Positions 9,031 through 34,551 of a stretch of 49,119 bases of DNA are shown here, piece after piece (position 1 is the first letter of the stretch; each line of letters starts with the position of its first letter). A program made the position numbers and the translations under genes. The notes beneath the pieces are model-generated. The model did not search any database, was not told the origin of the DNA, and saw only the letters and a program-made list of their open reading frames with translations. The stretch comes from a phage: sequence record PZ465523.1; one strand, given 5' to 3'.

Positions 9031-9043
9031 ATTAATTCTCCTG

Positions 9044-14573: not shown

Positions 14574-14607
14574 TTGCTAAAAATGCCCGAACGGATTCGG
14601 GTATAGT
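14568..14607 (+). promoter_or_regulatory. Box-type promoter: GCATTAATTGCTAAAA, 22 nt, TATAGT
   Basis: Gene stop TAA embedded in box; hairpin CCCGAA-cgga-TTCGGG in spacer. Confidence 0.55.
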
Positions 14608-14638
14608 GACCACATCTAAAACAAAGAGGATGCATATC

Positions 14639-16267: not shown

Positions 16268-16304
16268 GATATTTTCCTTCAGGTCGTTTCGTTTCGATGA
16301 AACA

Positions 16305-16350
16305 AATATACCCGATACGAGATCGGGTGTTTTAACAAAAAGTGCTATTT
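16305..16350 (-). promoter_or_regulatory. Box-type promoter: AAATAGCACTTTTTGTTAAAA, 22 nt, TATATT
   Basis: Hairpin CCCGAT-ctcgt-ATCGGG in spacer. Confidence 0.55.
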
Positions 16351-16868: not shown

Positions 16869-18437
16869 TTAACCCATCAGTCGAGGATTTATGAAAACAA
16901 TATCATCAATACGGCAAGTGTAATTCATCTCTTCTAGCGTGATTAGAAGACTGTCGATTCGCTCAGATACTTTCTGTTGACCGTTGAACGGAGTAACGTT
17001 CCGGCACTTTGCAACAATACTATGAATAGGTGCGCGGCCTTTGTTCTTCTTCGCGATCTCAGTGATAACATCAATCAGCTTACGAGATTCAGCCTCATCA
17101 CCAGCATACCCGGCAGCGCTGGCAGACGACAGATAAGTCCTGGAAAGCTCATTGAAGATCATGATCGCTTCCTGCATTGTTTCAAGGTCAATCTCACGGT
17201 TGGAACGGTTCGGTGATTCACCCTCCCAATTCTTGATCGTGTGGAGAACCGAAGCAATACGCAAAGCGTGCTTATCGAACTTGCCGAGATGACCGCGAAG
17301 CATTGAGTGAGAGTATTTCCCCCCGGCGGCGAAATCAGGCTCCATCGCCTGGCGCGCAAGGTTTAATTCACGCATAGCATTACGGCTCACAGAGAGAACA
17401 ACGTTGTCCTCCTTCATGATGTTGTGCACGAGTCTGTAATATTTGCTAACCAGTCCGCGATCGACTTCCTTATACAGCGCATCGCCATTTTCATCACAAA
17501 GAATACGAGTACCTAAAAGCGGCTCCTCGCGAACCAACAAGAAACGTTCGGATACACCTATACCGCGCTGGCCTGCATCCATGATGCCCTTGATTGTTTC
17601 ATCCTGCGCAATGACGCAGATCGAACCGACCGGGCAAAGAGATAAGTTGTTGTCCTGATTTGAACGCGCGACCTCCATATGGTTTTTATCCCACGCCTTA
17701 AGGATAAGCTCACTGTTAGATTTCTTATCTGAACCGCCATACGTAAGCCCGAGCAATGTATTGATTGCCGTTGCCTCGTCAGATATTACGGAAAAGTGAC
17801 CTTGCACTGCCGCCACTTTCGCAAGACCTTCAGGTGTAGGATCTGATACAGCGAAAACAATATCAGCCATCTTCTTGATCTTCTCTTCCAGCTTTTCTTT
17901 GTCCTCGTACAGAGCCGCCGTCGTGTTGCCTTTAGGATCGTTTTTTATTTCCTTCTCGACCTGACGTAGCTGACTGGTTAAACGGATACGTTCCTTTTTG
18001 CGCTCTTCATTCAGTCGCTGAATCTCCGCACGCATAGGTGTAATCGCCGCTGAGTTAATCGCTGATTTACCTGTTGATGGTGGCTGACTGATTACCATGT
18101 AAAGCGCTGTCGGCTGTTCTTCTCCATGATATTGCACCCAAAACTTCCCGAGCATCGCGGCTGATATGCAACCGATAAAATGAGCATACGCGGATGAAAC
18201 CGGGAACTGGACTGATTCAGCTTTTGCTTTTGCATATTCGAATACCAGGTTATCGCCACCTAACGAAATCAGAGGGAACTTATCGTTTCCGCTGTTGATA
18301 TCGATCGGATCTTGCCAAAAAGAAACTGAATCCCCGTAACTGTTTTCACGAATTGCGATCGCCACCGGATTCACTCCAGTGCTATTTGCGATCTCAATAA
18401 TTTGTTGGTAATTCAGTTTTGGCTTAATGTTAAACAT
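16869..18437 (-). CDS. Large early protein, possibly replication-associated; function unresolved
   Basis: 523 aa; start set at ATG 18437 after RBS AAGGAG; no clear Walker A. Confidence 0.6.
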   Translation of the reverse strand: MFNIKPKLNYQQIIEIANSTGVNPVAIAIRENSYGDSVSFWQDPIDINSGNDKFPLISLGGDNLVFEYAKAKAESVQFPVSSAYAHFIGCISAAMLGKFWVQYHGEEQPTALYMVISQPPSTGKSAINSAAITPMRAEIQRLNEERKKERIRLTSQLRQVEKEIKNDPKGNTTAALYEDKEKLEEKIKKMADIVFAVSDPTPEGLAKVAAVQGHFSVISDEATAINTLLGLTYGGSDKKSNSELILKAWDKNHMEVARSNQDNNLSLCPVGSICVIAQDETIKGIMDAGQRGIGVSERFLLVREEPLLGTRILCDENGDALYKEVDRGLVSKYYRLVHNIMKEDNVVLSVSRNAMRELNLARQAMEPDFAAGGKYSHSMLRGHLGKFDKHALRIASVLHTIKNWEGESPNRSNREIDLETMQEAIMIFNELSRTYLSSASAAGYAGDEAESRKLIDVITEIAKKNKGRAPIHSIVAKCRNVTPFNGQQKVSERIDSLLITLEEMNYTCRIDDIVFINPRLMG

Positions 18438-18466
18438 CACAATAAACTCCTTAGTTGACGGTGTGA

Positions 18467-18512
18467 ATGATACACCGCCAATGTTACACGCGTTTTGCAA
18501 AAAGTGCTATTG
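18467..18512 (-). promoter_or_regulatory. Box-type promoter: AATAGCACTTTTTGCAAAA, 22 nt, TATCAT
   Basis: Hairpin CGGTGT-atcattc-ACACCG downstream. Confidence 0.5.
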
Positions 18513-18930: not shown

Positions 18931-18966
18931 TGCGTTCACTCCTGATTGGTTATCTTGAATAAGGCC

Positions 18967-19013
18967 ACTTTATCAAATGACATTACGTCAATATTAACAA
19001 ATCGTGCTATTTA
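18967..19013 (-). promoter_or_regulatory. Box-type promoter: AAATAGCACGATTTGTTAA, 22 nt, TAAAGT
   Basis: Read on minus strand. Confidence 0.5.
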
Positions 19014-19451: not shown

Positions 19452-19484
19452 TTTTAATTCCTTTATTTCGCTTGGTGTGGGAGT

Positions 19485-19530
19485 AATATACCTTACTCCC
19501 TATTTATTGTCTTTAGCAATTAGTGCTATC
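19485..19530 (-). promoter_or_regulatory. Box-type promoter: GATAGCACTAATTGCTAAA, 23 nt, TATATT
   Basis: Hairpin GGGAGTAA-ggtatat-TTACTCCC. Confidence 0.55.
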
Positions 19531-19989: not shown

Positions 19990-20005
19990 TATTCCCCCTA
20001 ACCAG

Positions 20006-20569
20006 TCAGGATAGCTTTCGCGCTTCATCAATGATAACAGGTTCGAGACGCTCAAGTCGAACGCGGAACGTGTTCATAAATCCTTCGTTATTCTTCAATA
20101 GCTCGAAGGCGTCTGTTGCCTCAATGGCGCTATTTCCCATGTAGGCAACTACGCTCTTTTGCGTCTTGCGTGAGATCGCCACCACGCGGTAAATATTATC
20201 ACTCATACAATGCCTCCTTAACACGGTGCGCAATGCAGGAATTGACGGTGATTGAGTAGTTTGCCACGCCCATAATGCAATATTGCCAAGCTCGGTACGC
20301 ATTGATGGATTGTTAAGCTGGATTATCGTCTCTCCAGTATCTTTATCTACGAAGCGAGACACGCCCAAATGGTCAACCACGCGCGTTACGCGGTTCACGC
20401 ACTCCATTGCATCACTTACGCCGTAATAAGCGCTCAGAGCGGCTCTCACGGCCTTCTCTTGCTTGTTGTAAATCTTGCGCGCTATGTTCTCGATCGCAAT
20501 CTGCTCTTTTTCGTCAGTCTGTATTGCCGTGCTTGCTGAGAAGTCCAAGTCAATGAACTGCTTAAACAT
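20006..20569 (-). CDS. Hypothetical protein (187 aa)
   Basis: Start at ATG 20569 after RBS GAGGAAAG, downstream of box promoter at 20601..20645. Confidence 0.55.
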   Translation of the reverse strand: MFKQFIDLDFSASTAIQTDEKEQIAIENIARKIYNKQEKAVRAALSAYYGVSDAMECVNRVTRVVDHLGVSRFVDKDTGETIIQLNNPSMRTELGNIALWAWQTTQSPSIPALRTVLRRHCMSDNIYRVVAISRKTQKSVVAYMGNSAIEATDAFELLKNNEGFMNTFRVRLERLEPVIIDEARKLS

Positions 20570-20600
20570 GATTCTTTCCTCGTTTGCTGTTGATGGGATG

Positions 20601-20645
20601 ACTATACCAGCCATCCCGGATGCGCGTTTAGCAAAAAGTGCTATC
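20601..20645 (-). promoter_or_regulatory. Box-type promoter: GATAGCACTTTTTGCTAAA, 22 nt, TATAGT
   Basis: Hairpin GGGATG...CATCCC overlapping the -10. Confidence 0.55.
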
Positions 20646-20646
20646 C

Positions 20647-20751
20647 TCAGCGACCAACTGCATCCATAATGATTAAGAACATGATCGCGACCAGGCATCC
20701 TGACAGAGAGAAAAGCACCGATCCAATTGCATAATTAAAAAACTTTGCCAT
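20647..20751 (-). CDS. Small membrane peptide (34 aa)
   Basis: MAKFFNYAIGSVLFSLSGCLVAIMFLIIMDAVGR; RBS GAGGG; stop abuts box. Confidence 0.45.
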   Translation of the reverse strand: MAKFFNYAIGSVLFSLSGCLVAIMFLIIMDAVGR

Positions 20752-20756
20752 AATTA

Positions 20757-20984
20757 CCCTCTGAAACTATCAATTGTGTCGTTGATGTATTTCACTTGAG
20801 CCTCTACGTCAGACGTTGCGATATACTGGAATGTATCGTAATCATCCCACAAGTCGACAAGCTCAACCTTTGTATGATGCTATTTTAAGCCGCCCATGTG
20901 ACCGTAATGTGTGCGGTAGACGATGAATCCCTCATCATTGGCGCGCTGAATTGCTTTCTTTAATCCGGGGTGTTTAATTGCCAC
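20757..20984 (-). pseudogene. Reading frame interrupted by a single in-frame TAG; possible pseudogene or readthrough gene
   Basis: GTG start, 34 codons, TAG at 20880..20882, then 41 more in-frame codons to TAA at 20754..20756. Confidence 0.3.
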
Positions 20985-21015
20985 TTGGTCATTTCTCTGA
21001 TTGGTTGATGTTTTA

Positions 21016-21060
21016 AATATACCCCGATCACCTTCGGGGCGTTTAGCAATTCGTGCTATT
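21016..21060 (-). promoter_or_regulatory. Box-type promoter: AATAGCACGAATTGCTAAA, 22 nt, TATATT
   Basis: Hairpin CCCCGA-aggtga-TCGGGG in spacer. Confidence 0.55.
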
Positions 21061-21394
21061 AATCAATATCGAACTCAGCGGCATACGCTTTCTTGAAGCC
21101 AGCTTCACGCATGGTGCGCTTGCTGATTTTGCGCGGGAATTTGTACTGGCTGTTAGGCATAACCCACCAGAAGCAAGCAGTTTCACGAACGATTTCATAT
21201 TTACCGTAACGGGTGAAGGTGTCACGTTCCGCGTCCGGCTGGTTAACACAGGTCAGGAATTTAGCCGCTTTGTCTTCAGTTTTGATTTCTTCCCATACGA
21301 AGGAATCCATACCGTTAACATTGCAAGCTACCATGATGTACTCAACGCCGTTTTCGATTTTGATGATTTCGTTACCGCGATTTTCGTATTTCAT
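21059..21394 (-). CDS. Hypothetical protein (111 aa)
   Basis: ATG with RBS AGGAGCAGGAAA; C-terminus reads through the box. Confidence 0.5.
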   Translation of the reverse strand: MKYENRGNEIIKIENGVEYIMVACNVNGMDSFVWEEIKTEDKAAKFLTCVNQPDAERDTFTRYGKYEIVRETACFWWVMPNSQYKFPRKISKRTMREAGFKKAYAAEFDID

Positions 21395-21432
21395 TTTCCT
21401 GCTCCTGATGTGTATCTCGTTTCGATGAGGTA

Positions 21433-21478
21433 ATTATGCCAAACTACCCCGATCGAGTTTTAACAAAAAGTGCTATTT
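21433..21478 (-). promoter_or_regulatory. Box-type promoter: AAATAGCACTTTTTGTTAAAA, 22 nt, CATAAT
   Basis: Box encodes the Dcm C-terminus NSTFC and its stop. Confidence 0.55.
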
Positions 21479-22164
21479 GCGATCGCTTTGAAAAATCCAC
21501 GCGGCGACAGGGATCGTATCAGTTTGGTCTTTGCCGACTTGCCGCCCAACTTGCTATGCTGCGCAGAGTACCCTTCAGGAAGGCTTACAGGTTTTCTCTC
21601 CGGCATGACAAAATCGTCCGAGGTCCAAAGACACGTCTTTTTCGGATAAGCATCGCGCGGCGCAATATACATCGGGAACCAGGGATGCGAGTCATTCTCA
21701 GGAAGATAGCCGCCATACTCCCAGGGATTGAATGAGTGATCTGGTTTTCTCCAGGCAGATGACAGAACGCTAACCGGATTCTCAATGATGTAAGTCACGC
21801 CCAGGGCGTCGCCAATATTCGCAGCAATCCGGGCGGTGGCAACGGCCTTCTCCTGGAATAAGGGATTGCGCTTACGCTTACTTGCAAAGTGACGAGCACC
21901 ACTAACAGCCAGGTCAGTGCATGGAGGAAAGGCCATAATGAAATCCGGCTTACCATACACACCCGCAATCGCATCACGTTCGAACGTCTCATCAATGAAG
22001 ACGTTCACATACTCAATGTTCGGATGCTGTACCCGAGCATTGTACTTTGCATAATCTCCGTGATCGGCCCCGTCAAAGTTGAAGCACATCACCTTATGAC
22101 CTTGCTTAGCCAGTTCATGACCAGCAAGGCCGGAACCGTCGAATAGTGACCAAATTAGTTTCAT
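21460..22164 (-). CDS. dcm: DNA cytosine-5 methyltransferase
   Basis: LFDGSGLAG (motif I-like), FPPCTDLAVSG (motif IV PC), IIENP (motif VI ENV); start at ATG 22164 after AGGAGA. Confidence 0.7.
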   Translation of the reverse strand: MKLIWSLFDGSGLAGHELAKQGHKVMCFNFDGADHGDYAKYNARVQHPNIEYVNVFIDETFERDAIAGVYGKPDFIMAFPPCTDLAVSGARHFASKRKRNPLFQEKAVATARIAANIGDALGVTYIIENPVSVLSSAWRKPDHSFNPWEYGGYLPENDSHPWFPMYIAPRDAYPKKTCLWTSDDFVMPERKPVSLPEGYSAQHSKLGGKSAKTKLIRSLSPRGFFKAIANSTFC

Positions 22165-22197
22165 TGCAAATCTCCTGCTGATTGGTTGATGTGATGA

Positions 22198-22242
22198 ATC
22201 ATACCCTGCCAACATAGCTAAGTCGTTAGCAAAAAATGCTAT
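22198..22242 (-). promoter_or_regulatory. Box-type promoter variant: AATAGCATTTTTTGCTAAC, 23 nt, TATGAT
   Basis: Immediately upstream of Dcm leader CAACCAATCAGCAGGAG. Confidence 0.5.
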
Positions 22243-22427: not shown

Positions 22428-22447
22428 TTTTTAGCAAAAAGTGCTAT
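22428..22447 (-). promoter_or_regulatory. Box GATAGCACTTTTTGCTAAAA without a matching -10 at the usual spacing
   Basis: Distal-most box of the leftward arm, followed by hairpin GGAGG...CCTCC. Confidence 0.45.
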
Positions 22448-22856
22448 CCGTCTATATCTTCGTTGTAATTGTCGTAATAGTTGTATACTATCGGGGGTGT
22501 TACAAAATGGCCCCGAAGGGATGGGCCTATATATACTAAAATATCTATATATAATAATAAGATAGATAATATATATATATTTATTTATTATATTATATAT
22601 TGGTATGTAATCGGCGTAATAGGTGCAACCGCATTTTTGGAAGGTGGCATATATTTCAGGGTGCATAGTATAAAAAACATACTATTCCGCGCGTCGAAAT
22701 GGATGTGTGTGCTTTTATAGAAAAAGTCGGTTGCATCGGTTGCACTGGTTACAAAAATAAAAAATGCAGCTATAGACATTGACGCGCCTAGCCAGGTTGC
22801 TGTAACATGTTTTTCGGGGCGGCAAGTTACGCCCGTAGACAACGAGGTATAGACAA

Positions 22857-23603: not shown

Positions 23604-23648
23604 AATAGCACTTTTTGTTAAAACCGGATCGGAATAACCTGGTATAGT
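23604..23648 (+). promoter_or_regulatory. Box-type promoter: AATAGCACTTTTTGTTAAAA, 22 nt, TATAGT
   Basis: Read directly; upstream of gene 23680..24168. Confidence 0.55.
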
Positions 23649-23679
23649 AACCCCATCGACAACGAACGAGGACGCAAAC

Positions 23680-24168
23680 ATAAAAATCAAATTACTTTGC
23701 ACTGGCGGTTACAAGGGATTCACCCGCAACCTGGAAGCAGACCCTATCGTGGTTGATGCGGTTAAGTGCGATTCCAGCACTGGAGGCTACCGCGTTAAGG
23801 TTGACGATCTGGTTAAAGCTGGCGTGTACGATCTTGACTATGGACTTTCGGTTAGCCCTGTATTTGGTACGGCTGACTTTAACGAGAATGACGGAACGAT
23901 GTTCTTCTTCGAATGGGAAGTTCAAGCAAATCCTAAGCCGCGCAAGGTTCGACTTCTCAGTAATGGCGGCTACCCGCTGCGACAAGGCTATGAGAACCGC
24001 ACATTCCCAGTTATCGTGGACTTTGAAGAAATTACTAGCAATCTGGCATACGTTAACGATGAGCAGTTGCGAGCCGTTGGATTTGTCGGCGGGATGAATA
24101 AAGAGACGCTTTGCTTCTTCCACTGTAACGCCGAGCCGTTCGATATTGAGTGCGAGTTAGTTTACTAA
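23680..24168 (+). CDS. Cys beta-hairpin repeat family protein; apparent ATA start (ORF-track GTG at 23749 is the alternative)
   Basis: Frame open from 23638; RBS CGAGGA + 7 nt + ATA aligns with leaders of neighbouring genes; repeats IKLLCTGGYKGF and VKCDSSTGGYRVKV. Confidence 0.5.
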   Translation: MKIKLLCTGGYKGFTRNLEADPIVVDAVKCDSSTGGYRVKVDDLVKAGVYDLDYGLSVSPVFGTADFNENDGTMFFFEWEVQANPKPRKVRLLSNGGYPLRQGYENRTFPVIVDFEEITSNLAYVNDEQLRAVGFVGGMNKETLCFFHCNAEPFDIECELVY

Positions 24169-24209
24169 GCACGAATTGTTAAAAGGGGATTTGTCCTGAC
24201 TGGTATAAT
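24166..24209 (+). promoter_or_regulatory. Box-type promoter: TAAGCACGAATTGTTAAAA, 22 nt, TATAAT
   Basis: Gene stop TAA is the first triplet of the box; hairpin GGGGATT...AATCCCC. Confidence 0.55.
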
Positions 24210-24239
24210 CCCCAAGTAAACCACTAAGAGGAAAGAGTT

Positions 24240-24737
24240 ATGTTGAAATTAAACGAGATTAAATTCCCTGTAGTTTTTAACACTATTAGCTGCGGAAAAA
24301 TAACCTGCCATAGCAAAGACCGTGCAACAGATTCGTCATTCAATGAGTGCCATCCGTCTATTGTTGGTAATCTCATTGAGCTTCATAACAAGCACAACCC
24401 TGATAACATCCCGTCTCTTCCATATTATGTTGAGTATGTTGGACCCGGCTGGAAGGCTGGTTGGAAAGTTGGTAGAGCAATCTTTCATTCGTCAAAGCCA
24501 GAAATCAAGCCATCGCTACAGTGCACTCAGATCGAGAACATGCCATTGAGCGCGACGCTAAAGGGAGTCCAGCTTGATAGCGAATCCTGGACCGAGATTA
24601 CCGCCACACCTAAAACTATTGAGGTGCACGATGATGTGGTGATTCTCCTGTTGCATTACGGCGGCTTTAAGCACAAGACTGTATCAGGTGAAATCAGCAT
24701 TAAGCGCGGAACGCTTGTACGCTACGAGGTGAAATAA
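24240..24737 (+). CDS. Hypothetical protein (165 aa)
   Basis: RBS AAGAGGAAAGAG; ATG start. Confidence 0.55.
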   Translation: MLKLNEIKFPVVFNTISCGKITCHSKDRATDSSFNECHPSIVGNLIELHNKHNPDNIPSLPYYVEYVGPGWKAGWKVGRAIFHSSKPEIKPSLQCTQIENMPLSATLKGVQLDSESWTEITATPKTIEVHDDVVILLLHYGGFKHKTVSGEISIKRGTLVRYEVK

Positions 24738-24886
24738 TGGCTGCATGGGTTTTGATTATCTTAATGAGCACCGGGCCGGATCACGTATACATGGAAAGTC
24801 AGCAATCATGCAACAAGGCTCGGGAAGTAATTGCAGAGAACAAGCCGTTCGGGTACGAAGTTAAAACAATGTGCGTTAAACGATAG
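24737..24886 (+). CDS. Small membrane protein (49 aa) not in ORF track
   Basis: ATG overlaps upstream stop; hydrophobic N-terminus; TAG stop is part of box. Confidence 0.45.
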   Translation: MAAWVLIILMSTGPDHVYMESQQSCNKAREVIAENKPFGYEVKTMCVKR

Positions 24887-24926
24887 CACTAATTGCTAAA
24901 CCTTCCGCAAGGCCATTTGATATAGT
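24883..24926 (+). promoter_or_regulatory. Box-type promoter: ATAGCACTAATTGCTAAA, 22 nt, TATAGT
   Basis: Hairpin AAGGCCA...TGGCCTT spanning the -10. Confidence 0.55.
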
Positions 24927-24966
24927 GGCCTTATTGAAGCAAGGCAACCAATCAGAGGAATCAGCT

Positions 24967-25173
24967 ATGGCTACACGACTAACTCAGTGGCAGATTTACG
25001 ACAAGGCATCACGCCTTCGTGAATCGCTTCGCGGACTGACGCCGAATGACCGAATGGAGATTATCGGGCACGCATTGCACGAACTCACGCCTCAGGACGT
25101 AATCTATCATTCATGCGGCAATAAATTCTGGAACGTAACATTCGAGGTAAAGAAAGATGAGCAAAACTCATAA
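24967..25173 (+). CDS. Hypothetical protein (68 aa)
   Basis: ATG after conserved leader CAACCAATCAGAGGAATCA. Confidence 0.5.
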   Translation: MATRLTQWQIYDKASRLRESLRGLTPNDRMEIIGHALHELTPQDVIYHSCGNKFWNVTFEVKKDEQNS

Positions 25174-25444
25174 GTTAAAAATTACCCCGGTCCATTTCAT
25201 CGGTGTAATGAACGGCACAAAAACGGCAGAGTTCCGCATTAATGACCGCAACTTCCAGCTTGGCGATATCCTGGAGCTATGCGAGTTCGATCGGGATGAG
25301 TTTACCGGGTGGGAAGTGCATGCCAGGGTATCCGATGTTACAGACGTGACTCCTTACATCAATCGCGGGTATGACGATCAAGGATGCGACTTCACGCAAT
25401 ACGTGATGTTGTCAATCAAGCCTTACAGGAAGGTTAGACCATGA
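25157..25444 (+). CDS. ASCH-domain-like protein
   Basis: GTKTAEFR matches the ASCH G-x-K-x-x-E-x-R signature. Confidence 0.5.
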   Translation: MSKTHKLKITPVHFIGVMNGTKTAEFRINDRNFQLGDILELCEFDRDEFTGWEVHARVSDVTDVTPYINRGYDDQGCDFTQYVMLSIKPYRKVRP

Positions 25445-26097
25445 AATTTGAGTGCGTATCAAGTAGCGGATCTGGTTTTAAGTGGGGAAAAACTTACAAA
25501 GGTGTTCGCGTAAATGATGACAGCTTCATCATTACTGATGAGAACGGTTGCAACGTGAACGTTGTACGGCGTCACGAATACCAGGAAATTTTCCTGCCTT
25601 ATGGCGGTAGCTCAAAATATATCTTCCATCGAATCGTGGATGGTGTTAAATTTAACGACGTAATCGAAGCAATCAACCAACTGCATAATAAAGAGGTAAA
25701 ATTTATGAAATTCGAATGTATCAGTGATAACACCAAAAAATTTACCGTTGGCAAAATCTACGACGTTCCTACTGAGCACGCAAAGCACACTGTAGCGCTG
25801 ACCGACGACGCGGGCCGCCACCGCATTGCAACCGTAACTCACAATGGCGAAGGTCTTCGCTGGAATAGCGGCGGCACTAAGTTCGCAACGTTCGGCAAGA
25901 AGAAGCAGAAATTTAATACCAGTCGAATCAAGGGCGGTTTCCGCATCGAACATGGTAAGATTCACAGCGTTCATCCAAGCGAAGTTGATGGTAAAGTCAA
26001 GCCTAAGCTGACCAACAAGGATATTGATAATCTGGCGAATCTGGCTATGGCTACCGTGCTTCTTATTTCTCTTATCGTGCTGTTTTTCGTAGTTTAA
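25441..26097 (+). CDS. Membrane-anchored protein with two tandem Cys beta-hairpin repeats
   Basis: Repeats MKFECVSSSGSGFKWGKTYKGV and MKFECISDNTKKFTVGKIYDV; C-terminal TMD. Confidence 0.6.
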   Translation: MKFECVSSSGSGFKWGKTYKGVRVNDDSFIITDENGCNVNVVRRHEYQEIFLPYGGSSKYIFHRIVDGVKFNDVIEAINQLHNKEVKFMKFECISDNTKKFTVGKIYDVPTEHAKHTVALTDDAGRHRIATVTHNGEGLRWNSGGTKFATFGKKKQKFNTSRIKGGFRIEHGKIHSVHPSEVDGKVKPKLTNKDIDNLANLAMATVLLISLIVLFFVV

Positions 26098-26254
26098 CTT
26101 AAAGTGGGAATCGTTCCTGAGCGGTTCCCTATTTTTATGAGGTGAATATAAATAGCTTTATGCCTGACTTTAAGAACTGGAAAAACGAACCTCCATCATT
26201 TCATGAGTTGTTATTCTGCCTGCTGGTTTTGACGCTATCTCTTAAGGGTGTTTT

Positions 26255-26473
26255 ATGGCTACTATCATGACAGCAGAAGATGCAGCACGCGACGCAGTGG
26301 AAGGGATGCGCCCAAATAGCTCCAGAATCGCCCACTACTACAAATCTGATGTGTCGGCAGTGCAATTGGTCCATGAGATTTTAAGGCTACCACAAGTCGA
26401 TTCAGCGCGCGTGGTGACGTGCTTAAAAAATTATTTTTGCATCACTATTAAAACGAATAGCACGAATTGCTAA
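26255..26473 (+). CDS. Hypothetical protein (72 aa)
   Basis: ATG start; C-terminus NSTNC encoded by the box. Confidence 0.45.
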   Translation: MATIMTAEDAARDAVEGMRPNSSRIAHYYKSDVSAVQLVHEILRLPQVDSARVVTCLKNYFCITIKTNSTNC

Positions 26474-26500
26474 AACCTATCAAGGGGAATGCGCTATGAT
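26456..26500 (+). promoter_or_regulatory. Box-type promoter: AATAGCACGAATTGCTAAAA, 22 nt, TATGAT
   Basis: Hairpin GGGGAAT-gcgctatg-ATTCCCC. Confidence 0.55.
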
Positions 26501-26530
26501 TCCCCTACACCAACAAACGAGGAATCACTA

Positions 26531-26890
26531 ATGAAACACTTAATTTGCATTGAAACGCCTAACGATGAATACACTCTTCACGGTATCGGAATGTTCAAAG
26601 GTCACTACATGACAGCAAGCATTCATGATGCGCGACTATGCGATGGCGATCTGATGATTATATCAAAAGAAGTAAATCCGTACATTATGCAGAATCTTGG
26701 CAATAACGAATATATGGCATACGGCTGCAACGCCGTGTACAAGCATATCAAGATCCGCAAGCGTGTCGTGCGTGCATTCAAGAAGATTGCAATGAAATAC
26801 TGGAAGATGAGCAAGAAGGACGCCGGACGCTGGCGCGCAATGTTGCTGACTCGTACTTCTATCGTAACGGTGAGTCCCGCTACTTCCTGA
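26531..26890 (+). CDS. Hypothetical protein; C-terminal region may continue in another frame
   Basis: RBS CGAGGAA; alternative frame 26707..26976 encodes a more protein-like tail ending SCW. Confidence 0.45.
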   Translation: MKHLICIETPNDEYTLHGIGMFKGHYMTASIHDARLCDGDLMIISKEVNPYIMQNLGNNEYMAYGCNAVYKHIKIRKRVVRAFKKIAMKYWKMSKKDAGRWRAMLLTRTSIVTVSPATS

Positions 26891-26974
26891 TCGATGAAAT
26901 TATGGAAAGCTACGGCGGCGACTTCAGCCAGTGTAGCTTTGACGATTGGGCTGATTATGAGATCAGTTGCTGGT

Positions 26975-27019
26975 AATAGCACGAATTGCTAAAACTTGCT
27001 CAAGGGCATTTGTTAGAAT
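26975..27019 (+). promoter_or_regulatory. Box-type promoter: AATAGCACGAATTGCTAAAA, 22 nt, TAGAAT
   Basis: Hairpin AAGGGCATT...AATGCCCTT. Confidence 0.55.
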
Positions 27020-27058
27020 GCCCTTCGTTGAGTTAAGCAACCAATCAGAGGAATCAAT

Positions 27059-27262
27059 ATGAAAACTATTACCGGAATGAGCAACGAAACGAGAACGCAG
27101 AACGTTAACATGCTAATCGGGATGGCTGACGATATTCAGAATAGCCATGTCGTTATTGATTCATGCAATCAGACTCGTGAGAGTAAATTTGAATCATCCG
27201 GCTACAAAATTGTTGAAGAAGAATTAACCATCAAAATCATTCGCGTACAGGAGAAAGCATAA
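27059..27262 (+). CDS. Hypothetical protein (67 aa)
   Basis: ATG after leader CAACCAATCAGAGGAATCA. Confidence 0.5.
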   Translation: MKTITGMSNETRTQNVNMLIGMADDIQNSHVVIDSCNQTRESKFESSGYKIVEEELTIKIIRVQEKA

Positions 27263-27795
27263 TGGATAAAATCACAATTTGGGGTCAGACAATCAACCTG
27301 TTTCTCGGCACTCGCCGCGTGGCAATCTTTGACTTCGACGGAACACTGAGTGACGGCTCAAAACGTCTTCACCTGCTACCGACGAAAGATTTGCACTTAA
27401 CGGAAAGCTGGTCTGAGTTCAACCGCGCGGCAATATTTGACAATCCTATCCGTAGTACGATTGATGTGATGAACTCTATGTTTGCCGCTGGGTATCATGT
27501 GATTATTTTAACCGGGCGAAGCGATGAGGTGCGTTACGCATCTGAGTTATGGCTTAAGCATCACGGCGCTCGATATGATTACTTAGTCATGAGGCCGCAT
27601 ACCGACAACCGCAAAGACACGGTAATGAAAGAAGAGGCTGTGCGCGCGATCGGCATTGATAACATTCTGGCGGCCTGGGATGACTCACCGCAAATTATTC
27701 CATTATTCCGATCGCTTGGAATAACCACGTATGCCGTAGTTGACTATGGCGATAACGTTCACGACCATTTAAAATCTCACGGGGTGGATGAGTGA
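27262..27795 (+). CDS. HAD-superfamily phosphatase (polynucleotide 3'-phosphatase-like)
   Basis: DxDGT motif FDFDGTL near N-terminus; later TGR and DD motifs; start overlaps upstream stop. Confidence 0.65.
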   Translation: MDKITIWGQTINLFLGTRRVAIFDFDGTLSDGSKRLHLLPTKDLHLTESWSEFNRAAIFDNPIRSTIDVMNSMFAAGYHVIILTGRSDEVRYASELWLKHHGARYDYLVMRPHTDNRKDTVMKEEAVRAIGIDNILAAWDDSPQIIPLFRSLGITTYAVVDYGDNVHDHLKSHGVDE

Positions 27796-27907
27796 ACCTA
27801 TACGAATTTATTGCAGCACATCCTGTATTGACGGTTATCATCCTGTTAATCATCAATCACACTATCATCAATGTGGCAAAATTATTTTTAGGGAGATACT
27901 AACATGA
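27788..27907 (+). CDS. Cys/His-rich 39-aa peptide between phosphatase and kinase
   Basis: ATG overlaps phosphatase 3' end; stop TGA overlaps kinase ATG (ATGA); sequence MSEPIRIYCSTSCIDGYHPVNHQSHYHQCGKIIFREILT. Confidence 0.4.
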   Translation: MSEPIRIYCSTSCIDGYHPVNHQSHYHQCGKIIFREILT

Positions 27908-28476
27908 AAACAGCTATCATTTTAAACGGCGCACCTAGAGCGGGAAAAGACACTATCGGATGCATCCTGGCTGACACTTACGATCACGTAGCGCTCCGCA
28001 GCTTCAAGGCTCCAATGTTTGAGATTGCCCGGGCAATCCTGGGTGAAGCTAACTACGAGTATTTCATGTTCTTGTATGATGACCGTCGATATAAAGAAGA
28101 GCCAGCATCAATCCTGAACGGTAAAAGCCCGCGCCAGTTTATGATCTGGATTAGCGAGGAAGTCATCAAGCCGCAGTTCGGAAATCGCTTCTTCGGTATG
28201 CGAGCGGAAAGCGAGGTGAAAGAGTCGAACTCCCTTTCGGTATTTACTGATGGTGGATTCAAAGACGAAATCTTGCAGATGATTGAAGGTGATATCCAAG
28301 TCAAGCTATGCCGCATACATCGCAACGGCTGCAACTTCGATAACGACAGTCGAGATTATATCTACTTGGATGATATGATCGGTGTCAACGGTTATCAGGA
28401 ATGTGATTTCTTCTCTGTCGAAGGTCATCCAGAAATTACCGCTCAGCACATAGCCGCCACGTTCATCAATAAATAG
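27904..28476 (+). CDS. P-loop nucleotide or polynucleotide kinase
   Basis: Walker A NGAPRAGKDT near N-terminus; stop TAG inside box. Confidence 0.6.
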   Translation: MKTAIILNGAPRAGKDTIGCILADTYDHVALRSFKAPMFEIARAILGEANYEYFMFLYDDRRYKEEPASILNGKSPRQFMIWISEEVIKPQFGNRFFGMRAESEVKESNSLSVFTDGGFKDEILQMIEGDIQVKLCRIHRNGCNFDNDSRDYIYLDDMIGVNGYQECDFFSVEGHPEITAQHIAATFINK

Positions 28477-28516
28477 CACGAATTGCTAAAACGTCGATGG
28501 GGTGATTTGATATAGT
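28472..28516 (+). promoter_or_regulatory. Box-type promoter: AATAGCACGAATTGCTAAAA, 22 nt, TATAGT
   Basis: Read directly; kinase stop embedded. Confidence 0.55.
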
Positions 28517-28549
28517 TACCTCATCGACAACCAAGAGAGACAAATCGAA

Positions 28550-29859: not shown

Positions 29860-30025
29860 ATTAATCATTCGAAAGATGGGAATGTTTTGCCAGTCGTGCA
29901 AGCAATCTTTCGAAACTGAATTATCAGCAACCAGTCAGGCAGAAGCCATCACGAAAGCAAAAAAACTTTCCGGCGCTAACCTTGACACTCACAAAATAAA
30001 TATTGAATTAATCAAGGAGATTTAA
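29840..30025 (+). CDS. Small CxxC-containing protein; start uncertain
   Basis: ORF-track ORF overlapping the previous one; contains CQSC. Confidence 0.35.
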   Translation: MKRFKVKLIIRKMGMFCQSCKQSFETELSATSQAEAITKAKKLSGANLDTHKINIELIKEI

Positions 30026-30254: not shown

Positions 30255-30264
30255 TAAACACTAA

Positions 30265-30286
30265 CCCGCTCCGGCGGGTTTTTTTA
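30265..30286 (+). terminator. Rho-independent terminator ending the rightward early operon
   Basis: CCCGC-tcc-GGCGGG stem followed by TTTTTTT. Confidence 0.7.
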
Positions 30287-30303
30287 TGCCTGCAATATGG
30301 TAA

Positions 30304-30322
30304 AATAGCACTAAATGTTAAA
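30304..30322 (+). promoter_or_regulatory. Degenerate box AATAGCACTAAATGTTAAA upstream of terminase small subunit
   Basis: TATGGT hexamer just upstream; RBS AAAGAGG downstream. Confidence 0.4.
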
Positions 30323-30338
30323 CAAAGAGGATGGATTT

Positions 30339-30902: not shown

Positions 30903-32471
30903 ATGATTCAATGGGAAGACCTTAACGCAACGCAGAAGTTAGCGATCAAGAAAATGAGCGAGGCCAATTTCGAAAAAATGATTCGGATCTGGTTCCAGCT
31001 TATGCAGGCGCAGCAGTTCCAGCCTAACTGGCATCACCTTTACCTATGTCACGAAGTGGAGGAAATTATTGCAGGGCGGCGAGGGAATACAATCTTTAAC
31101 GTCACGCCAGGTTCCGGTAAAACTGAAGTGTTCTCAATTCACCTTCCGGTGTACGCAATGCTCAAGTGTAAGAAGGTGCGAAACCTTAACGTGTCGTTTG
31201 CCGACAGCTTGGTTAAGCGTAACAGTAAGCGTGTCCGTGAGATTATCAGCAGCAACGAATTTCAAGAGCTATGGCCTTGCAAATTCGGTACATCGAAAGA
31301 TGAGGAGATGCAGGTTCTTAACGAAGATGGAAAGGTTTGGTTTGAGCTAATCTCCGCTGCGGCTGGCGGTCGTATTACTGGTTCGCGTGGTGGGTACATG
31401 ACGCCTGGATTCTCCGGGATGGTAATGCTCGACGATATCGATAAGCCTGATGATATGTTCTCAAAGGTTAAGCGTGAGCGTACGCACATGCTATTGAAAA
31501 ACACCATTCGATCCCGTCGTATGCACAACGAGACGCCGATTATTGCGATTCAGCAGCGACTACATGCCCAGGACTCAACCTGGTTCATGATGAATGGCGG
31601 CATGGGTATTGAGTTTGACCAAATCTCAATTCCGGCGCTGGTGACGGAAGAATACGGGAAGACACTTCCTGATTGGTTGCAGCCTTACTTTGAGCGTGAT
31701 GTTTTATCGTCTGATTATGTAGAATTGGATGGCGTTAAGCATTACTCTTTTTGGCCCAGCAAGGAAAGTGTTCACGACCTGTTAGCCTTGCGAGAAGCTG
31801 ACCAGTACACCTTTGACTCTCAGTATCAGCAGAAGCCGATCGCGCTTGGTGGCTCCGTGTTTAACTCGGAGTGGTGGACTTATTACGGCAGCAGCCTTGA
31901 CGCTGACGAGCCAGATCCTGGCAAATATGATTACCGTTTTATCACAGCCGATACTGCTCAGAAGACAGGCGAGCTAAACGACTACACGGTATTTTGTTTG
32001 TGGGGCAAGAAGAATGATAAGGTTTACTTTATCGACGGCATTCGCGGAAAGTGGGAAGCGCCGGATATGGAGAGGCAATTTACAGCTTTCGTCAATCAGG
32101 CATGGAGGCACAATAAATCAATGGGGGTACTTCGTAAAATCTATGTGGAAGATAAGGCGAGCGGTACGGGCTTAATCCAGAACCTAAGGAAAAAGACTCC
32201 GATCTCTATCACTCCATTGCAGCGTAACAAGGATAAAGTTACCCGAGCGATGGATGCTCAGCCAGTCATTAAGGCTGGTCGCGTGGTTCTGCCAGAAGAG
32301 CACCCCATGCTTGCGGAAATTATCGCGGAACATAGCGCATTCACTTACGATGACACTCACCCGCATGATGATATCGTCGATAACTTCATGGATGCGGCGA
32401 ATATCGAATTACTGACAATTGACGATCCTATCGAGCGAATGAAGCGACTCGCCGGGATGGTTAAGCGGTAA
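30903..32471 (+). CDS. Terminase large subunit
   Basis: Walker A VTPGSGKT; C-terminal nuclease-like acidic residues; start at ATG after GGGAGA. Confidence 0.8.
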   Translation: MIQWEDLNATQKLAIKKMSEANFEKMIRIWFQLMQAQQFQPNWHHLYLCHEVEEIIAGRRGNTIFNVTPGSGKTEVFSIHLPVYAMLKCKKVRNLNVSFADSLVKRNSKRVREIISSNEFQELWPCKFGTSKDEEMQVLNEDGKVWFELISAAAGGRITGSRGGYMTPGFSGMVMLDDIDKPDDMFSKVKRERTHMLLKNTIRSRRMHNETPIIAIQQRLHAQDSTWFMMNGGMGIEFDQISIPALVTEEYGKTLPDWLQPYFERDVLSSDYVELDGVKHYSFWPSKESVHDLLALREADQYTFDSQYQQKPIALGGSVFNSEWWTYYGSSLDADEPDPGKYDYRFITADTAQKTGELNDYTVFCLWGKKNDKVYFIDGIRGKWEAPDMERQFTAFVNQAWRHNKSMGVLRKIYVEDKASGTGLIQNLRKKTPISITPLQRNKDKVTRAMDAQPVIKAGRVVLPEEHPMLAEIIAEHSAFTYDDTHPHDDIVDNFMDAANIELLTIDDPIERMKRLAGMVKR

Positions 32472-32525: not shown

Positions 32526-33809
32526 ATGAAAATTGTTAAACATGATGGATATAACGATATTTTTAACGGCGGTGCAGATGGATCGCCTAAGCCATTCTTT
32601 ATGTCTGATGCATCATATCACGTCGGTTCTTTCTACAACGACAACGCAACCGCGAAGCGAATTGTGGATGTTATCCCGGAAGAGATGGTGACGGCTGGCT
32701 TTAAAATGTCAGGTGTTAAGGATGAAAAAGAGTTCAAGTCTTTATGGGATAGCTACAAACTTGATTCAAGTCTGGTGGATCTTCTTTGTTGGGCGAGACT
32801 TTACGGTGGCGCGGCGATGGTGGCAATCATCAAAGACAACCGGATGTTAACCAGTCAGGCAAAGCCTGGAGCTAAACTTGAAGGCGTCCGAGTTTACGAT
32901 CGATTTGCTATCACTGTTGAAAAGCGAGTCACCAATGCAAGATCCCCTCGCTATGGTGAGCCTGAAATCTACAAGGTATCCCCTGGCGACAATATGCAGC
33001 CGTATCTGATTCATCACTCAAGAGTCTTTATTGCTGATGGTGAGCGAGTAACGCAACAGGCAAGAAAACAGAATCAAGGATGGGGAGCATCGGTATTGAA
33101 CAAGTCACTGATTGATGCAATCTGTGACTATGATTACTGTGAATCTCTGGCTACTCAGATCTTGAGACGTAAGCAACAGGCTGTATGGAAGGTCAAAGGT
33201 CTTGCCGAAATGTGTGATGATGATGATGCTCAGTACGCCGCGCGCCTGCGACTTGCTCAGGTTGATGATAACTCCGGCGTGGGCCGTGCGATCGGTATCG
33301 ATGCTGAGACTGAGGAATATGACGTTCTCAACTCTGATATCAGCGGAGTTCCTGAGTTCTTATCAAGCAAGATGGACCGCATCGTCTCCCTGTCAGGTAT
33401 TCATGAGATTATCATCAAGAATAAGAACGTAGGCGGCGTATCAGCGAGCCAAAACACAGCGCTTGAGACTTTCTATAAGCTAGTCGATCGCAAACGCGAG
33501 GAAGATTACAGGCCGCTTCTTGAGTTCTTGTTGCCGTTCATTGTTGATGAGGAAGAGTGGTCGATCGAGTTTGAGCCTTTGTCTGTTCCGAGTAAGAAAG
33601 AGGAATCAGAGATCACGAAGAATAACGTTGAGTCGGTTACGAAAGCTATCACTGAGCAAATCATCGATCTGGAAGAAGCTCGCGACACGTTGCGATCCAT
33701 TGCCCCTGAGTTCAAACTCAAGGATGGTAATAACATCAACATTCGCGAACCGGAAGAAACAACCGAACCGGAACCGGGATTAGGGGAGAAGTTAGAAGAT
33801 GAAAATTAA
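32526..33809 (+). CDS. Portal protein
   Basis: Size and position after terminase; start after RBS GGAGGAAAC. Confidence 0.7.
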   Translation: MKIVKHDGYNDIFNGGADGSPKPFFMSDASYHVGSFYNDNATAKRIVDVIPEEMVTAGFKMSGVKDEKEFKSLWDSYKLDSSLVDLLCWARLYGGAAMVAIIKDNRMLTSQAKPGAKLEGVRVYDRFAITVEKRVTNARSPRYGEPEIYKVSPGDNMQPYLIHHSRVFIADGERVTQQARKQNQGWGASVLNKSLIDAICDYDYCESLATQILRRKQQAVWKVKGLAEMCDDDDAQYAARLRLAQVDDNSGVGRAIGIDAETEEYDVLNSDISGVPEFLSSKMDRIVSLSGIHEIIIKNKNVGGVSASQNTALETFYKLVDRKREEDYRPLLEFLLPFIVDEEEWSIEFEPLSVPSKKEESEITKNNVESVTKAITEQIIDLEEARDTLRSIAPEFKLKDGNNINIREPEETTEPEPGLGEKLEDEN

Positions 33810-34551
33810 TGGCGTTGCAACACAGTGGCGCTATCCTGAAATGAGCGAGCGCGCAATGTCGCGCTCCCTACAGGATGTTGCAGCCAAACTAACTGAGAAA
33901 ATGCGTGACGAATTAAAACCGATGAAATTTGACGCTACTGACGAAGAGATAGATCAGACAGAAAGGTCATTGCTTGATTACGTCGAATCACTCATCGCTC
34001 CGATTATTGGTTCTCTATCATCCGTTGCGCTCACGATCTATAAATTCAACTCTAAGCAGTGGCTGCGCATCGCTCGAAATTCTGGAGGTAAGAAGAATCA
34101 AGCCGTGATGCTACTTGCCCTGATTGGTCCTACCGCTGCCGAAAGCTGGTACTCAGGACAATATAATCTATGGCGATCGCAGGTGACTACTTCTATCAGG
34201 AAATTTGCTGCCAACATGGTTACTGATTTCACTGATAAACTTCGTGCTGCATCCGGTCAGGGTAAAAGCAAGGATTTTGTTGTTGAACTTGCTAATGAGC
34301 GATTTGGTGTTTACCGGAATTGGGCCAAAAATAGAGCGTCGGGAATTGTTGGAACCTGGAACAGTAGACTAATGCGTCAGCGCATAAAAGACGCTGGAGT
34401 CTCTTACTATTTCTGGCGCGGGGTGATGGATTTACGCGAACGTGAAAAACATGTAAGATGGGAAGGTAAGCGCATAGCGGTAGATTCCGATCACGTATTC
34501 CCAGGTGAGGAATACAATTGCCGCTGTTGGGCTGTTCCATCGTTCACATAA
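33799..34551 (+). CDS. Head morphogenesis / minor capsid protein
   Basis: Position after portal; start overlaps portal stop. Confidence 0.55.
   Translation: MKINGVATQWRYPEMSERAMSRSLQDVAAKLTEKMRDELKPMKFDATDEEIDQTERSLLDYVESLIAPIIGSLSSVALTIYKFNSKQWLRIARNSGGKKNQAVMLLALIGPTAAESWYSGQYNLWRSQVTTSIRKFAANMVTDFTDKLRAASGQGKSKDFVVELANERFGVYRNWAKNRASGIVGTWNSRLMRQRIKDAGVSYYFWRGVMDLREREKHVRWEGKRIAVDSDHVFPGEEYNCRCWAVPSFT

Follow-up and report, generated by a model that had tools for sequence, protein, structure and literature searches.

A String Repeated Before Start Codons of a T1-like Phage: A Proposed Marbox-Type Promoter–Leader Cassette and the Genome-Wide Word ACCARTCAG

Introduction

The DNA considered here, called the window, is the whole stretch of 49,119 nucleotides in sequence record PZ465523.1. 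It is the nearly complete genome of a T1-like siphovirus (Drexlerviridae). An alignment with phage T1 spans the whole window at 84–95% identity, and the region 24000–28000 is 90–94% identical to the Shigella phages phiL, Shfl1 and Sfin-1 and to many Escherichia and Klebsiella T1-like phages. Bases 1–121 are an exact duplicate of 48999–49119, which is best explained by overlap in the assembly of a circular or circularly permuted genome opened at an arbitrary point, and not by a biological repeat. Our subject is a string that stands before the start codons at 24967 and 27059 and, in variant form, before further starts. An earlier note on this DNA had proposed that the part of the string upstream of the Shine-Dalgarno (SD) sequence is a translational enhancer or a binding site for a regulator of translation. 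We describe the string, the longer cassette in which nearly all its leader copies lie, and the genome-wide word ACCARTCAG to which its core belongs.

A 21-base direct repeat has been reported for phages TLS, T1, Rtp and Rogue1 (PMC11447400). Its function was an open question for its authors, who suggested stoperators, enhancer sites or UP elements (PMC11447400).

Samples Compared

Cassettes were collected from 120 repeat-containing loci from IMG/VR and from T1 (L001). The cassette profile was built on 232 unique cassettes, and leader motifs were surveyed in 233 unique cassettes from T1-like phages. Breakpoints of homology were surveyed between the window and 130 related loci, and conservation at third codon positions was scored between the window and T1.

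The Repeated String and Its Leaders

The two leaders with the longest identity, and a cassette of a different leader family that lies between them, are laid out as follows.

24883–24902, plus strand: box ATAGCACTAATTGCTAAACC, before gene 24967; positions 4–18 match gcannwwntgnnaaa perfectly
24911–24930, plus strand: stem-loop GGCCATTTGATATAGTGGCC, enclosing the −10 hexamer TATAGT (24921–24926), with TGa upstream
24933–24966, plus strand: predicted 5′ untranslated region (UTR), with +1 at about 24933, ACCAATCAG at 24947–24955, SD GAGGA at 24955–24959 and ATG at 24967
26457–26530, plus strand: cassette of the other leader family, with box at 26457–26476, −10 TATGAT at 26495–26500, leader ACACCAACAAACGAGGAATCACTA and ATG at 26531
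26976–26995, plus strand: box ATAGCACGAATTGCTAAAAC, before gene 27059
27002–27025, plus strand: stem-loop AAGGGCATTTGTTAGAATGCCCTT, enclosing −10 TAGAAT (27014–27019), with TGt upstream; z of −2.18 with the hairpin included
27026–27058, plus strand: predicted 5′ UTR, with ACCAATCAG at 27040–27048, SD at 27048–27052 and ATG at 27059

The identity of the string before the two ATGs, as the earlier note had it, is confirmed: the 19-mer CAACCAATCAGAGGAATCA is the same at 24945–24963 (+) and 27038–27056 (+), and ends 3 nt before ATG 24967 and 2 nt before ATG 27059. The variants reported before five further starts are likewise all present, each adjoining an SD sequence, at the following places.

4764–4837, plus strand: cassette with a degenerate box and a hairpin, GAGGTG..CACCTC, around TATAAT; ACCAATCAG at 4818–4826; ATG 4838 (Erf-like gene)
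18931–19010, minus strand: cassette with box at 18991–19010, −10 TAAAGT and a ACCAATCAG leader (18942–18950); ATG 18930
20985–21059, minus strand: cassette with box at 21040–21059, −10 TATATT and ACCAATCAG at 20997–21005
22165–22242, minus strand: cassette with box at 22223–22242, −10 TATGAT at 23-nt spacing and a ACCAATCAG leader (22178–22186); ATG 22164
41274–41293, plus strand: leader CAACCAATCAGGAGAACATC, with ACCAATCAG at 41276–41284; ATG 41294 (tail-region gene); forward box absent, and a reverse-oriented box at 41254–41273 adjoins

The leader site before the short open reading frame (ORF) at 20992 (−) is real, but ATG 20992 opens only 10 codons, and GTG 20984, which opens a 34-codon ORF, is the likelier start.

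The 15-mer CAACCAATCAGAGGA occurs 13 times with up to three mismatches, against 1.37 expected from dinucleotide shuffles, and the 9-mer core ACCAATCAG also occurs 13 times, against 0.37 expected from shuffles; in neither case did any of 100 shuffles reach 13. The two exact copies of CAACCAATCAGAGGAATCA lie within an 81-nt repeat of 80% identity (family D3), and all leader copies but that at 41276 form the 3′ end of a longer, repeated promoter cassette. Thus, the shared duplicated promoter segment, which the earlier note had named as the finding that would speak against its proposal, is what underlies the long identity: the copies belong to paralogous promoter–leader cassettes. The core ACCAATCAG occurs inside genes too, and its one-base variant ACCAGTCAG is equally over-represented.

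Anatomy of the Cassette

When ATAGCACnnnTTGnTAAA is searched for under relaxed conditions, about 26 copies of the box come to light on the two strands of the window. About 22 of the 26 have a TAnnnT hexamer at a fixed distance, followed by a short leader, an SD sequence and a start codon, and the cassette so formed is about 75–85 nt long. Among T1-like loci with several repeats, TAnnnT lies exactly 22 nt after TTGNTA in 211 of about 300 cassettes, and in the large majority of cassettes the gap between the end of the box and the −10 hexamer is 18 bp. The hexamer is usually TG-extended. The profile of the 232 unique cassettes reads ATAGCAC-w-w-w-TTG-y-TAAAAC, 16 variable nt, t-G-n-TATAAT, n-a-C-C-c-C and then A. 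This last A, at position 51 and 7 nt after the −10 hexamer, is found in 85% of the cassettes and would be the transcription start (+1). It is followed by an A-rich and T-poor stretch (T at 3–10% per column) that runs into AGGA.

The 20-nt box consensus, ATAGCACwwwTTGyTAAAAC, is that of the published 21-nt repeat (ATAGCACnnnTTGyTAAAAC). G4, C5, A6 and C7, T11, T12 and G13, and A16–18 are invariant, and variation is confined to A/T at positions 9–10 and C/T at position 14.

Between the box and the leader, the DNA has a marked potential to fold. The promoter core (positions 19–54) has a mean minimum free energy of −11.2 kcal/mol and a mean z of −2.9, with z below −1.5 in 79% of cassettes; the leader (positions 51–85) and control positions 65–100 give about −1.8 to −2.0 kcal/mol, with z near 0. 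The stems are GC-rich and variable in sequence, and they enclose the −10 hexamer in 73 cassettes and end just upstream of it in 59. Because the position of the stem varies among cassettes, no single fixed pairing register was found, and complementarity between column pairs is only 0.1–0.2 above expectation; it is the energy z-scores that argue for the hairpin. The GenBank record of T1 annotates three of the cassette hairpins as rho-independent terminators.

The 5′ UTR is short (about 25–35 nt), A/C-rich and unstructured. Taken from the predicted +1, the leaders of genes 24967 and 27059 are less folded than 191/200 and 199/200 shuffles, respectively. There are two main leader families, (ATC)GAAACGAAAC(GAGG) and CAACCAATCAG. 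Rfam searches at gathering thresholds gave no family match in the window.

The Box as a Proposed Marbox

The site bound by MarA, SoxS and Rob is asymmetric, 5′-gcannwwntgnnaaa-3′, and at class II promoters the marbox lies forward, overlapping the −35 region, with its centre between −36 and −55 (PMC12052159). In the class II promoter of micF, the marbox has its centre at −41.5 and is made up of GCAC and CAAA elements (PMC9638938). Positions 4–18 of the phage repeat fit every constrained position of this consensus in 209 of the 232 unique cassettes, and the variable positions of the repeat are the n and w positions of the marbox. Perfect marbox matches number 20 in the window, against 0.09 expected. 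In the E. coli K-12 genome (NC_000913), micF has the box ACAGCACTGAATGTCAAAAC, then exactly 18 bp, then TAGAAT, and the mar box, read as its reverse complement, is ATGCCACGTTTTGCTAAATC. The phage cassette has the same orientation and spacing as micF: a 20-bp box, 18 bp, and the −10 hexamer. Relative to the predicted +1, the centre of the box would be at −40.5 or −41.5.

Cassette positions −35 to −30 read AAAACn, so that the −35 hexamer is weak or absent. In line with this, a scan of the window for canonical sigma-70 −35/−10 promoters recovered no cassette and gave four matches against nine expected, as would fit activator-dependent promoters aided by the TG extension. Searches for a homologue of AraC or MarA, made by phmmer with MarA and SoxS queries (approximate sequences) against all six-frame ORFs, returned noise only, and a Pfam scan of 54 non-structural ORFs gave no HTH_18/AraC match. 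The homologue of T1 ST23 (8581–9030, −), annotated as a transcriptional regulator, was considered as a MarA-like activator and set aside, as it is weakly Cro/YdaS-like, below the Pfam cut-off.

A canonical-looking sigma-70 promoter (TTGACG, 16 nt, TAACAT) is present at about 22778–22856, ahead of gene 22857, which is homologous to ST77 at the left end of T1. This candidate immediate-early promoter would be independent of the box. An activator encoded downstream of this promoter, near 22780, was also considered and rejected: the proteins there have no match to a DNA-binding domain.

The Core Within Leaders

ACCARTCAG is found in the leader of 31 of the 233 unique cassettes surveyed. It ends 10–11 nt before the ATG in 26 of these 31, and lies at a variable 10 to 21 nt from the −10 hexamer; the motif is therefore tied to the translation initiation region and not to the promoter. 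Leader copies are always in the sense orientation. When 31 cassettes of one subfamily are aligned, the motif is present in 20 and cleanly absent from 11 (GCA|ACCAATCAG|AGGA versus GCA|AAGGA), and the 9-mer is invariant where neighbouring leader bases vary. Thus, ACCAATCAG is a separate 9-nt module that a leader may have or lack, and its position is set by the ribosome-binding region.

The complementarity to 16S ribosomal RNA (rRNA) that the earlier note had suggested looking for does not exceed that of shuffled sequences: in RNAduplex comparisons with the whole 16S rRNA and with its 3′ 40 nt, the best duplex is no better than 26–87% of shuffles. The longest perfect complement is 7 nt (16S positions 1019–1025). 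RNAduplex found no complement beyond shuffles in 23S and 5S rRNA either.

The Word ACCARTCAG Across the Genome

Under a third-order Markov model, the two most over-represented 9-mers of the window are ACCAGTCAG (14 copies, 0.46 expected) and ACCAATCAG (13 copies, 0.60 expected), which outrank the words of the 21-nt repeat. Together they make 27 copies of ACCARTCAG, against about 1 expected, 12 on the plus strand and 15 on the minus strand, or about one per 1.8 kb. Seven copies lie in SD-adjoining leaders, two in other intergenic places and 18 in genes; the in-gene copies fall in several reading frames, 6 of them sense and 12 antisense. Words that differ from ACCARTCAG by one base are nearly absent, save for A/G (few T) at position 5. 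The flanks carry no half-site or longer consensus, there being no information beyond about 1 nt on each side (A favoured 5′, T excluded 3′). Spacing is somewhat more even than random (coefficient of variation of gaps 0.67, P ~0.02).

The copies in genes, and one of those between genes, are as follows.

616–624, minus strand: ACCAGTCAG in a gene, antisense
3126–3134, plus strand: ACCAGTCAG in a gene, antisense
4320–4328, minus strand: ACCAGTCAG in a gene, antisense
5700–5708, minus strand: ACCAGTCAG in a gene, antisense
9680–9688, minus strand: ACCAATCAG in the helicase gene, antisense
11359–11367, minus strand: ACCAATCAG in the VRR-NUC gene, antisense; inverted partner of the copy at 11439
11439–11447, plus strand: ACCAGTCAG in the VRR-NUC gene, sense
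13171–13179, minus strand: ACCAGTCAG in a gene, antisense
17970–17978, minus strand: ACCAGTCAG in a gene, sense
20001–20009, plus strand: ACCAGTCAG, intergenic; its reverse complement is just 5′ of the SD of the minus-strand gene starting at 19989
29930–29938, plus strand: ACCAGTCAG in a gene, sense
31669–31677, minus strand: ACCAATCAG in the large terminase gene, antisense
32850–32858, plus strand: ACCAGTCAG in the portal gene, sense
34120–34128, minus strand: ACCAATCAG in a gene, antisense
39200–39208, plus strand: ACCAGTCAG in a gene, sense
44233–44241, minus strand: ACCAGTCAG in the tape measure gene, antisense
44662–44670, plus strand: ACCAATCAG in the tape measure gene, sense
46406–46414, minus strand: ACCAATCAG in a gene, antisense
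48129–48137, minus strand: ACCAGTCAG in the tail fibre/tip gene that runs off the end of the window, antisense

T1 has 25 copies, and 22 of the 24 alignable window copies are intact in it. Within in-gene copies, only 2 of 56 third codon positions differ between the window and T1, against a background of 21.3% (P = 1.9e-4), and the conservation holds against random sets of 9-mers (P = 0.0014). The antisense copies taken alone show 1 difference in 36 third positions (P = 0.0019). A translational enhancer cannot explain this conservation, since 12 of the in-gene copies are antisense, and so normally not in messenger RNA (mRNA), and the copies are conserved at synonymous sites. The pattern points to a constraint acting at the level of DNA.

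T1-like loci carry 3.5 copies per 10 kb and unrelated viral loci 0.4, and a 50-kb sample of E. coli holds 2 copies (about tenfold rarer). TLS, Rtp-like and ESP2949-1-like loci are enriched too, as is a relative whose helicase is 67% identical. Among T1-like loci without the motif that were checked, L024 turned out not to be T1-like, and no replacement motif was found in the motif-free T1-like loci. In-gene copies are not enriched as mosaic breakpoints (2, against 0.9 expected). The two copies in the VRR-NUC gene (11359–11367, −, and 11439–11447, +) are inverted and 80 bp apart; the pair is kept in the relative with 67% helicase identity, and one copy, that at 11359–11367, is kept in a relative with 64%.

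To our knowledge, the sites of IHF and Fis, the half-sites of PdhR/GntR, sigma-54 promoters, MotA boxes, type I/III restriction sites, BREX motifs and primase sites include none that fits both the A and the G variants. Chi (GCTGGTGG) was rejected as the identity of the word, its sequence being unrelated; the window has no Chi site, against 6 in the 50-kb E. coli sample. A search of the accessible literature found no paper that mentions the 9-mer in a phage context.

Cassettes as Mosaic Junctions

The homology of the window to T1 is interrupted at cassette edges, namely at 14558/14600, 16047/16346, 18511/18516, 20644, 21477, 22448 and 23604, and again at 24951, within ACCAATCAG, and at 27058, the base preceding the ATG. 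Compared with T1, additional genes lengthen the window by about 740 bp behind the first leader (24967), and a 67-codon gene is inserted exactly between the second leader (27059) and the gene for polynucleotide kinase. Of the 57 distinct breakpoints seen with the related loci, 15 fall inside cassettes, which make up 5.3% of the genome (3.0 expected; hand-computed binomial P ~3e-7). Elsewhere among phages, this cassette with its leader stands in front of many genes unrelated to one another, and identity stops 3–5 nt past ACCAATCAG(A/G)GG. Cassettes are thus paralogous recombination junctions, with genes gained or lost exactly at the leader/ATG boundary, and the long identity of the string reflects mainly the paralogy of a mobile regulatory cassette.

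Several local observations concern these junctions. T1 has HNH endonuclease genes (42028–42510 and 46085–46624) exactly at the cassette positions that correspond to 14564 and 18510 of the window, which lacks them; cassettes appear to be landing sites for homing-type genes as well. The stretch 20645–22185 is missing from T1 apart from its cassettes. The 234-amino-acid gene at 21460–22164 (−), which stands behind a ACCAATCAG leader, is absent from T1; it has a weak, sub-threshold match to C-5 cytosine DNA methylases (E = 0.075). At 25441–26097, a 218-codon ORF resembles two in-frame tandem paralogues, MKFECVSS... (25441) and MKFECISD... (25706), each with its own SD, and T1 homology resumes at 25693, beside the leader-like ATCAACCAAC. 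DUF7244 is matched by three window proteins.

Further Cassettes and Related Modules in the Window

The cassettes not yet described are these.

8518–8594, minus strand: cassette of the primase gene (GTG 8517), with a T run after the hairpin
9043–9124, plus strand: cassette of the helicase gene (GTG 9125)
11553–11623, plus strand: cassette of the Dam methyltransferase gene (ATG 11624)
12576–12651, plus strand: cassette with the hairpin upstream of the −10; ATG 12652
14564–14638, plus strand: cassette; ATG 14639; HNH gene inserted here in T1
16268–16348, minus strand: cassette; ATG 16267; T1 homology breakpoint at 16346
18441–18510, minus strand: cassette of a gene for a 522-amino-acid helicase-like protein; breakpoint at 18511
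19452–19529, minus strand: cassette with 23-nt spacing; ATG 19451
20570–20644, minus strand: cassette; ATG 20569; breakpoint at 20644
21395–21476, minus strand: cassette; ATG 21394
23605–23679, plus strand: cassette of the T1 ST71 homologue, start codon ATA (23680); breakpoint at 23604
24166–24239, plus strand: cassette; ATG 24240; its spacer holds a reverse-oriented ACCAGTCAG (24196–24204) that overlaps the TGG of the extended −10
28473–28549, plus strand: cassette; ATG 28550

The T1 ST71 homologue (23680–24168) has ATA where T1 has ATG, and the proteins are otherwise collinear; the ATA may reflect a mutated start codon, initiation at a non-canonical codon or an error in the sequence. Boxes lacking a correctly spaced −10 are found at 30305–30324, 37490–37509 (−), 41254–41273 (−), 22428–22447 (−) and 7502–7521. 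One of them is 14 nt before the SD of the small terminase gene, two are antisense in late intergenic regions, and that at 41254–41273 directly adjoins the ACCAATCAG leader of gene 41294. Unlike the early cassettes, late-region intergenic modules at 30255–30300, 45204–45249 and 47383–47428 consist of a strong GC hairpin with a T run, without a marbox; directly after this comes CTGTAGAATGG, CTGTATAATGG or CTGCAATATGG (a terminator, then a −10-like hexamer).

Two further kinds of repeat were seen. AT-rich repeats of the (TATA)n/GATAGATAA kind at 3320–3380 and 22528–22588 are 72% alike and sit in the two largest intergenic regions (3240–3698 and 22667–22856), and TATATATA occurs 12 times against 1.2 expected; the AT-rich repeat regions may be origin-related or regulatory. 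GATC occurs 239 times in the window against 192 expected, and the GATC-containing word CGATCTCA/TGAGATCG 13 times against 2.5.

Discussion

We conclude, with a probability of roughly 0.6, that the repeated string is the 3′ end of a repeated promoter–leader cassette that carries a marbox-type box, and that its core belongs to a genome-wide word, ACCARTCAG, selected at the level of DNA. That the string is only a translation signal is unlikely. The box would be a marbox, placed as in class II promoters dependent on MarA, SoxS or Rob. Since no AraC-type protein of the phage was found, we propose that host Rob, MarA or SoxS (RamA in Klebsiella) replaces the missing −35 contact at the cassette promoters. 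As for the word, the most likely reading is that a putative sequence-specific DNA-binding or DNA-processing factor reads it. The leader would then be the one non-coding, non-promoter stretch in which a copy can be parked, and only the A/C-rich orientation would be compatible with an open ribosome-binding region. The all-sense orientation of the leader copies and their preference for the A variant would follow because the leader avoids T and G. Thus, the leader copies would be instances of a genome-wide DNA signal placed in non-coding space.

It is tempting to go further, and we do so tentatively, to a proposal that we regard as possible and short of probable. ACCARTCAG would be an undescribed DNA signal of T1-like phages, read by a protein on duplex or single-stranded DNA and perhaps serving as a Chi-like mark of self in nuclease attenuation or in replication and recombination, with the leader copies parked. 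Separately, the approximately 22 early promoters would be of the class II marbox type and tied to the host Mar/Sox/Rob system.

Some observations weigh against these conclusions. The position of +1, the part played by MarA, SoxS or Rob, and the effect of the leader on translation are all things that we infer. T1 thrives on unstressed laboratory hosts, in which MarA and SoxS are low. Dependence on MarA or SoxS may be partial, with the TG-extended −10 giving basal activity, or the box may be bound instead by a phage protein of unrecognised fold. A T run was not found after most stem-loops, and a terminator role for them is uncertain. The word is missing from one divergent T1-like locus, L008 (14 kb, 5 cassettes). 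Leaders seldom carry the G variant, and the distance of 10–11 nt to the ATG, with the strictly sense orientation, would also fit a role at the RNA level.

This last point is the strength of the proposal that ACCAAUCAG in the 5′ UTR raises ribosome recruitment, or binds an RNA-binding protein of phage or host that tunes a subset of genes. The motif keeps its distance from the ATG whatever the distance of the promoter, is always sense in leaders that are unusually unstructured, comes and goes as a unit in homologous leaders, and is also present at 41276, behind a promoter without a forward box. But shuffled sequences are just as complementary to the 16S, 23S and 5S rRNAs, no Rfam family is found in the window, the genes served share no common function, and 20 of the 27 copies are not in leaders, 12 of them being antisense in genes and yet conserved at synonymous sites. 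The interpretation of the earlier note is thus supported in part, by the geometry of the leaders, but as the explanation of the string a purely translational role is unlikely; a regulator might bind the site, and the evidence favours recognition on DNA over recognition on mRNA alone. It is possible that leader copies additionally act on mRNA, and nothing argues for this better than their fixed distance from the ATG. Could the core simply be a passenger, without a function of its own, of promoter segments spread by recent duplication or gene conversion? The 80% identical 81-nt repeat around the two exact copies, the mosaic junctions, and the occurrence of one subfamily before many different genes are what this would predict. 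We nevertheless consider it quite improbable, as the 9-mer is invariant amid varying leader bases, is found in at least six different promoter/hairpin backgrounds at varying distances from the −10, and is over-represented and selectively conserved outside cassettes.

A reading on DNA is shared by the proposal of a stoperator-like operator, at which a phage repressor bound to ACCARTCAG, at +5 to +25 of some early units and within genes, would shut down or block transcription later in infection. The site is indeed asymmetric, conserved at the DNA level and dispersed in many copies, those in cassettes lie just downstream of the predicted +1, and a Cro-like helix-turn-helix protein is encoded at 8581–9030 (−). 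Stoperators were also raised in the TLS paper for the 21-nt repeat (PMC11447400). Nonetheless, the orientation of the word relative to transcription is balanced (about 13 to 14), most copies are in late structural genes that must stay expressed, and none is near the promoter of the Cro-like gene itself. The stoperators of mycobacteriophage L5 are oriented with transcription. An operator of this kind is therefore rather unlikely. Chance or composition, for which only the A/C-rich bias of leaders speaks, has next to no prospect of accounting for the word: 13 copies stand against 0.37 expected (0.5–0.6 under the Markov model), and single-base neighbours are nearly absent. We thus return to a DNA-level word whose leader copies lie in marbox-type cassettes.

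The match to the marbox, together with the class II geometry, offers a concrete hypothesis for a repeat published without an assigned function. If it is true, host regulators of antibiotic and oxidative stress are read by a large family of virulent phages of enterobacteria, among them therapy candidates and contaminants of fermentations. ACCARTCAG is new as far as the searched literature shows, and its reader could tell us how these phages mark their DNA as their own or protect it. When genomes are annotated, conserved strings before phage ATGs should be checked against whole-genome word frequencies before they are called translational signals.

Comparison with Known Systems

Relative to the paper on the 21-nt repeat of TLS and T1-like phages, the present account adds the constant 18-bp gap before the −10, the agreement with the marbox, the hairpin, the conserved leader and the word ACCARTCAG, none of which is in that description (PMC11447400).

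The word is like Chi and the L5 stoperators in being short, asymmetric, far above chance in number, dispersed fairly evenly and conserved irrespective of coding; it differs from them in having no orientation bias and only a putative reader. Translational enhancers of phage leaders, such as the epsilon element of T7 gene 10 and A/U-rich S1-binding leaders, are also short conserved sequences 5′ of the SD in an unstructured region. In contrast, the phage word is not A/U-rich, has no excess complementarity to rRNA, and is conserved in genes on both strands.

E. coli class II promoters such as micF resemble the cassette in their asymmetric, forward 20-bp box with GCAC and YAAA elements, the 18-bp gap to the −10, a centre at about −41 and the lack of a usable −35. 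Unlike them, the phage box is present in about 20–25 copies in a virulent genome rather than in a stress regulon, its spacer holds a conserved hairpin, and its binding by MarA, SoxS or Rob is putative. A search of the accessible literature found no paper that ties marboxes to Drexlerviridae.

The closest parallel in behaviour is with the promoter early stem-loops (PeSLs) of T4-type phages. A PeSL has an early promoter, with a GGGG..CCCC stem-loop between the −35 and −10 or overlapping the −10, and an SD and ATG at its 3′ end, and crossovers occur between the −10 and the SD/ATG (Arbiol, Comeau and Krisch 2010, PMC2839356; Comeau et al. 2014, PMC4122927). The differences are that the phage family is another one, without sequence homology, that the upstream element is a marbox-like box 5 bp further upstream and not a consensus −35 with an AT-rich tract, and that the stem-loops lack T runs. 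The cassette is thus PeSL-like in behaviour and not a member of the T4-type PeSL family, being of Drexlerviridae and having a box in place of the −35. Both are small, repeated, intergenic early promoters for host RNA polymerase with a stem-loop and with an SD and start codon at the 3′ end, both are clustered among small genes of unknown function, and both are sites of insertion, deletion and replacement between relatives. The cassettes account for the mosaic early regions of Drexlerviridae, as PeSLs do for T4-type phages.

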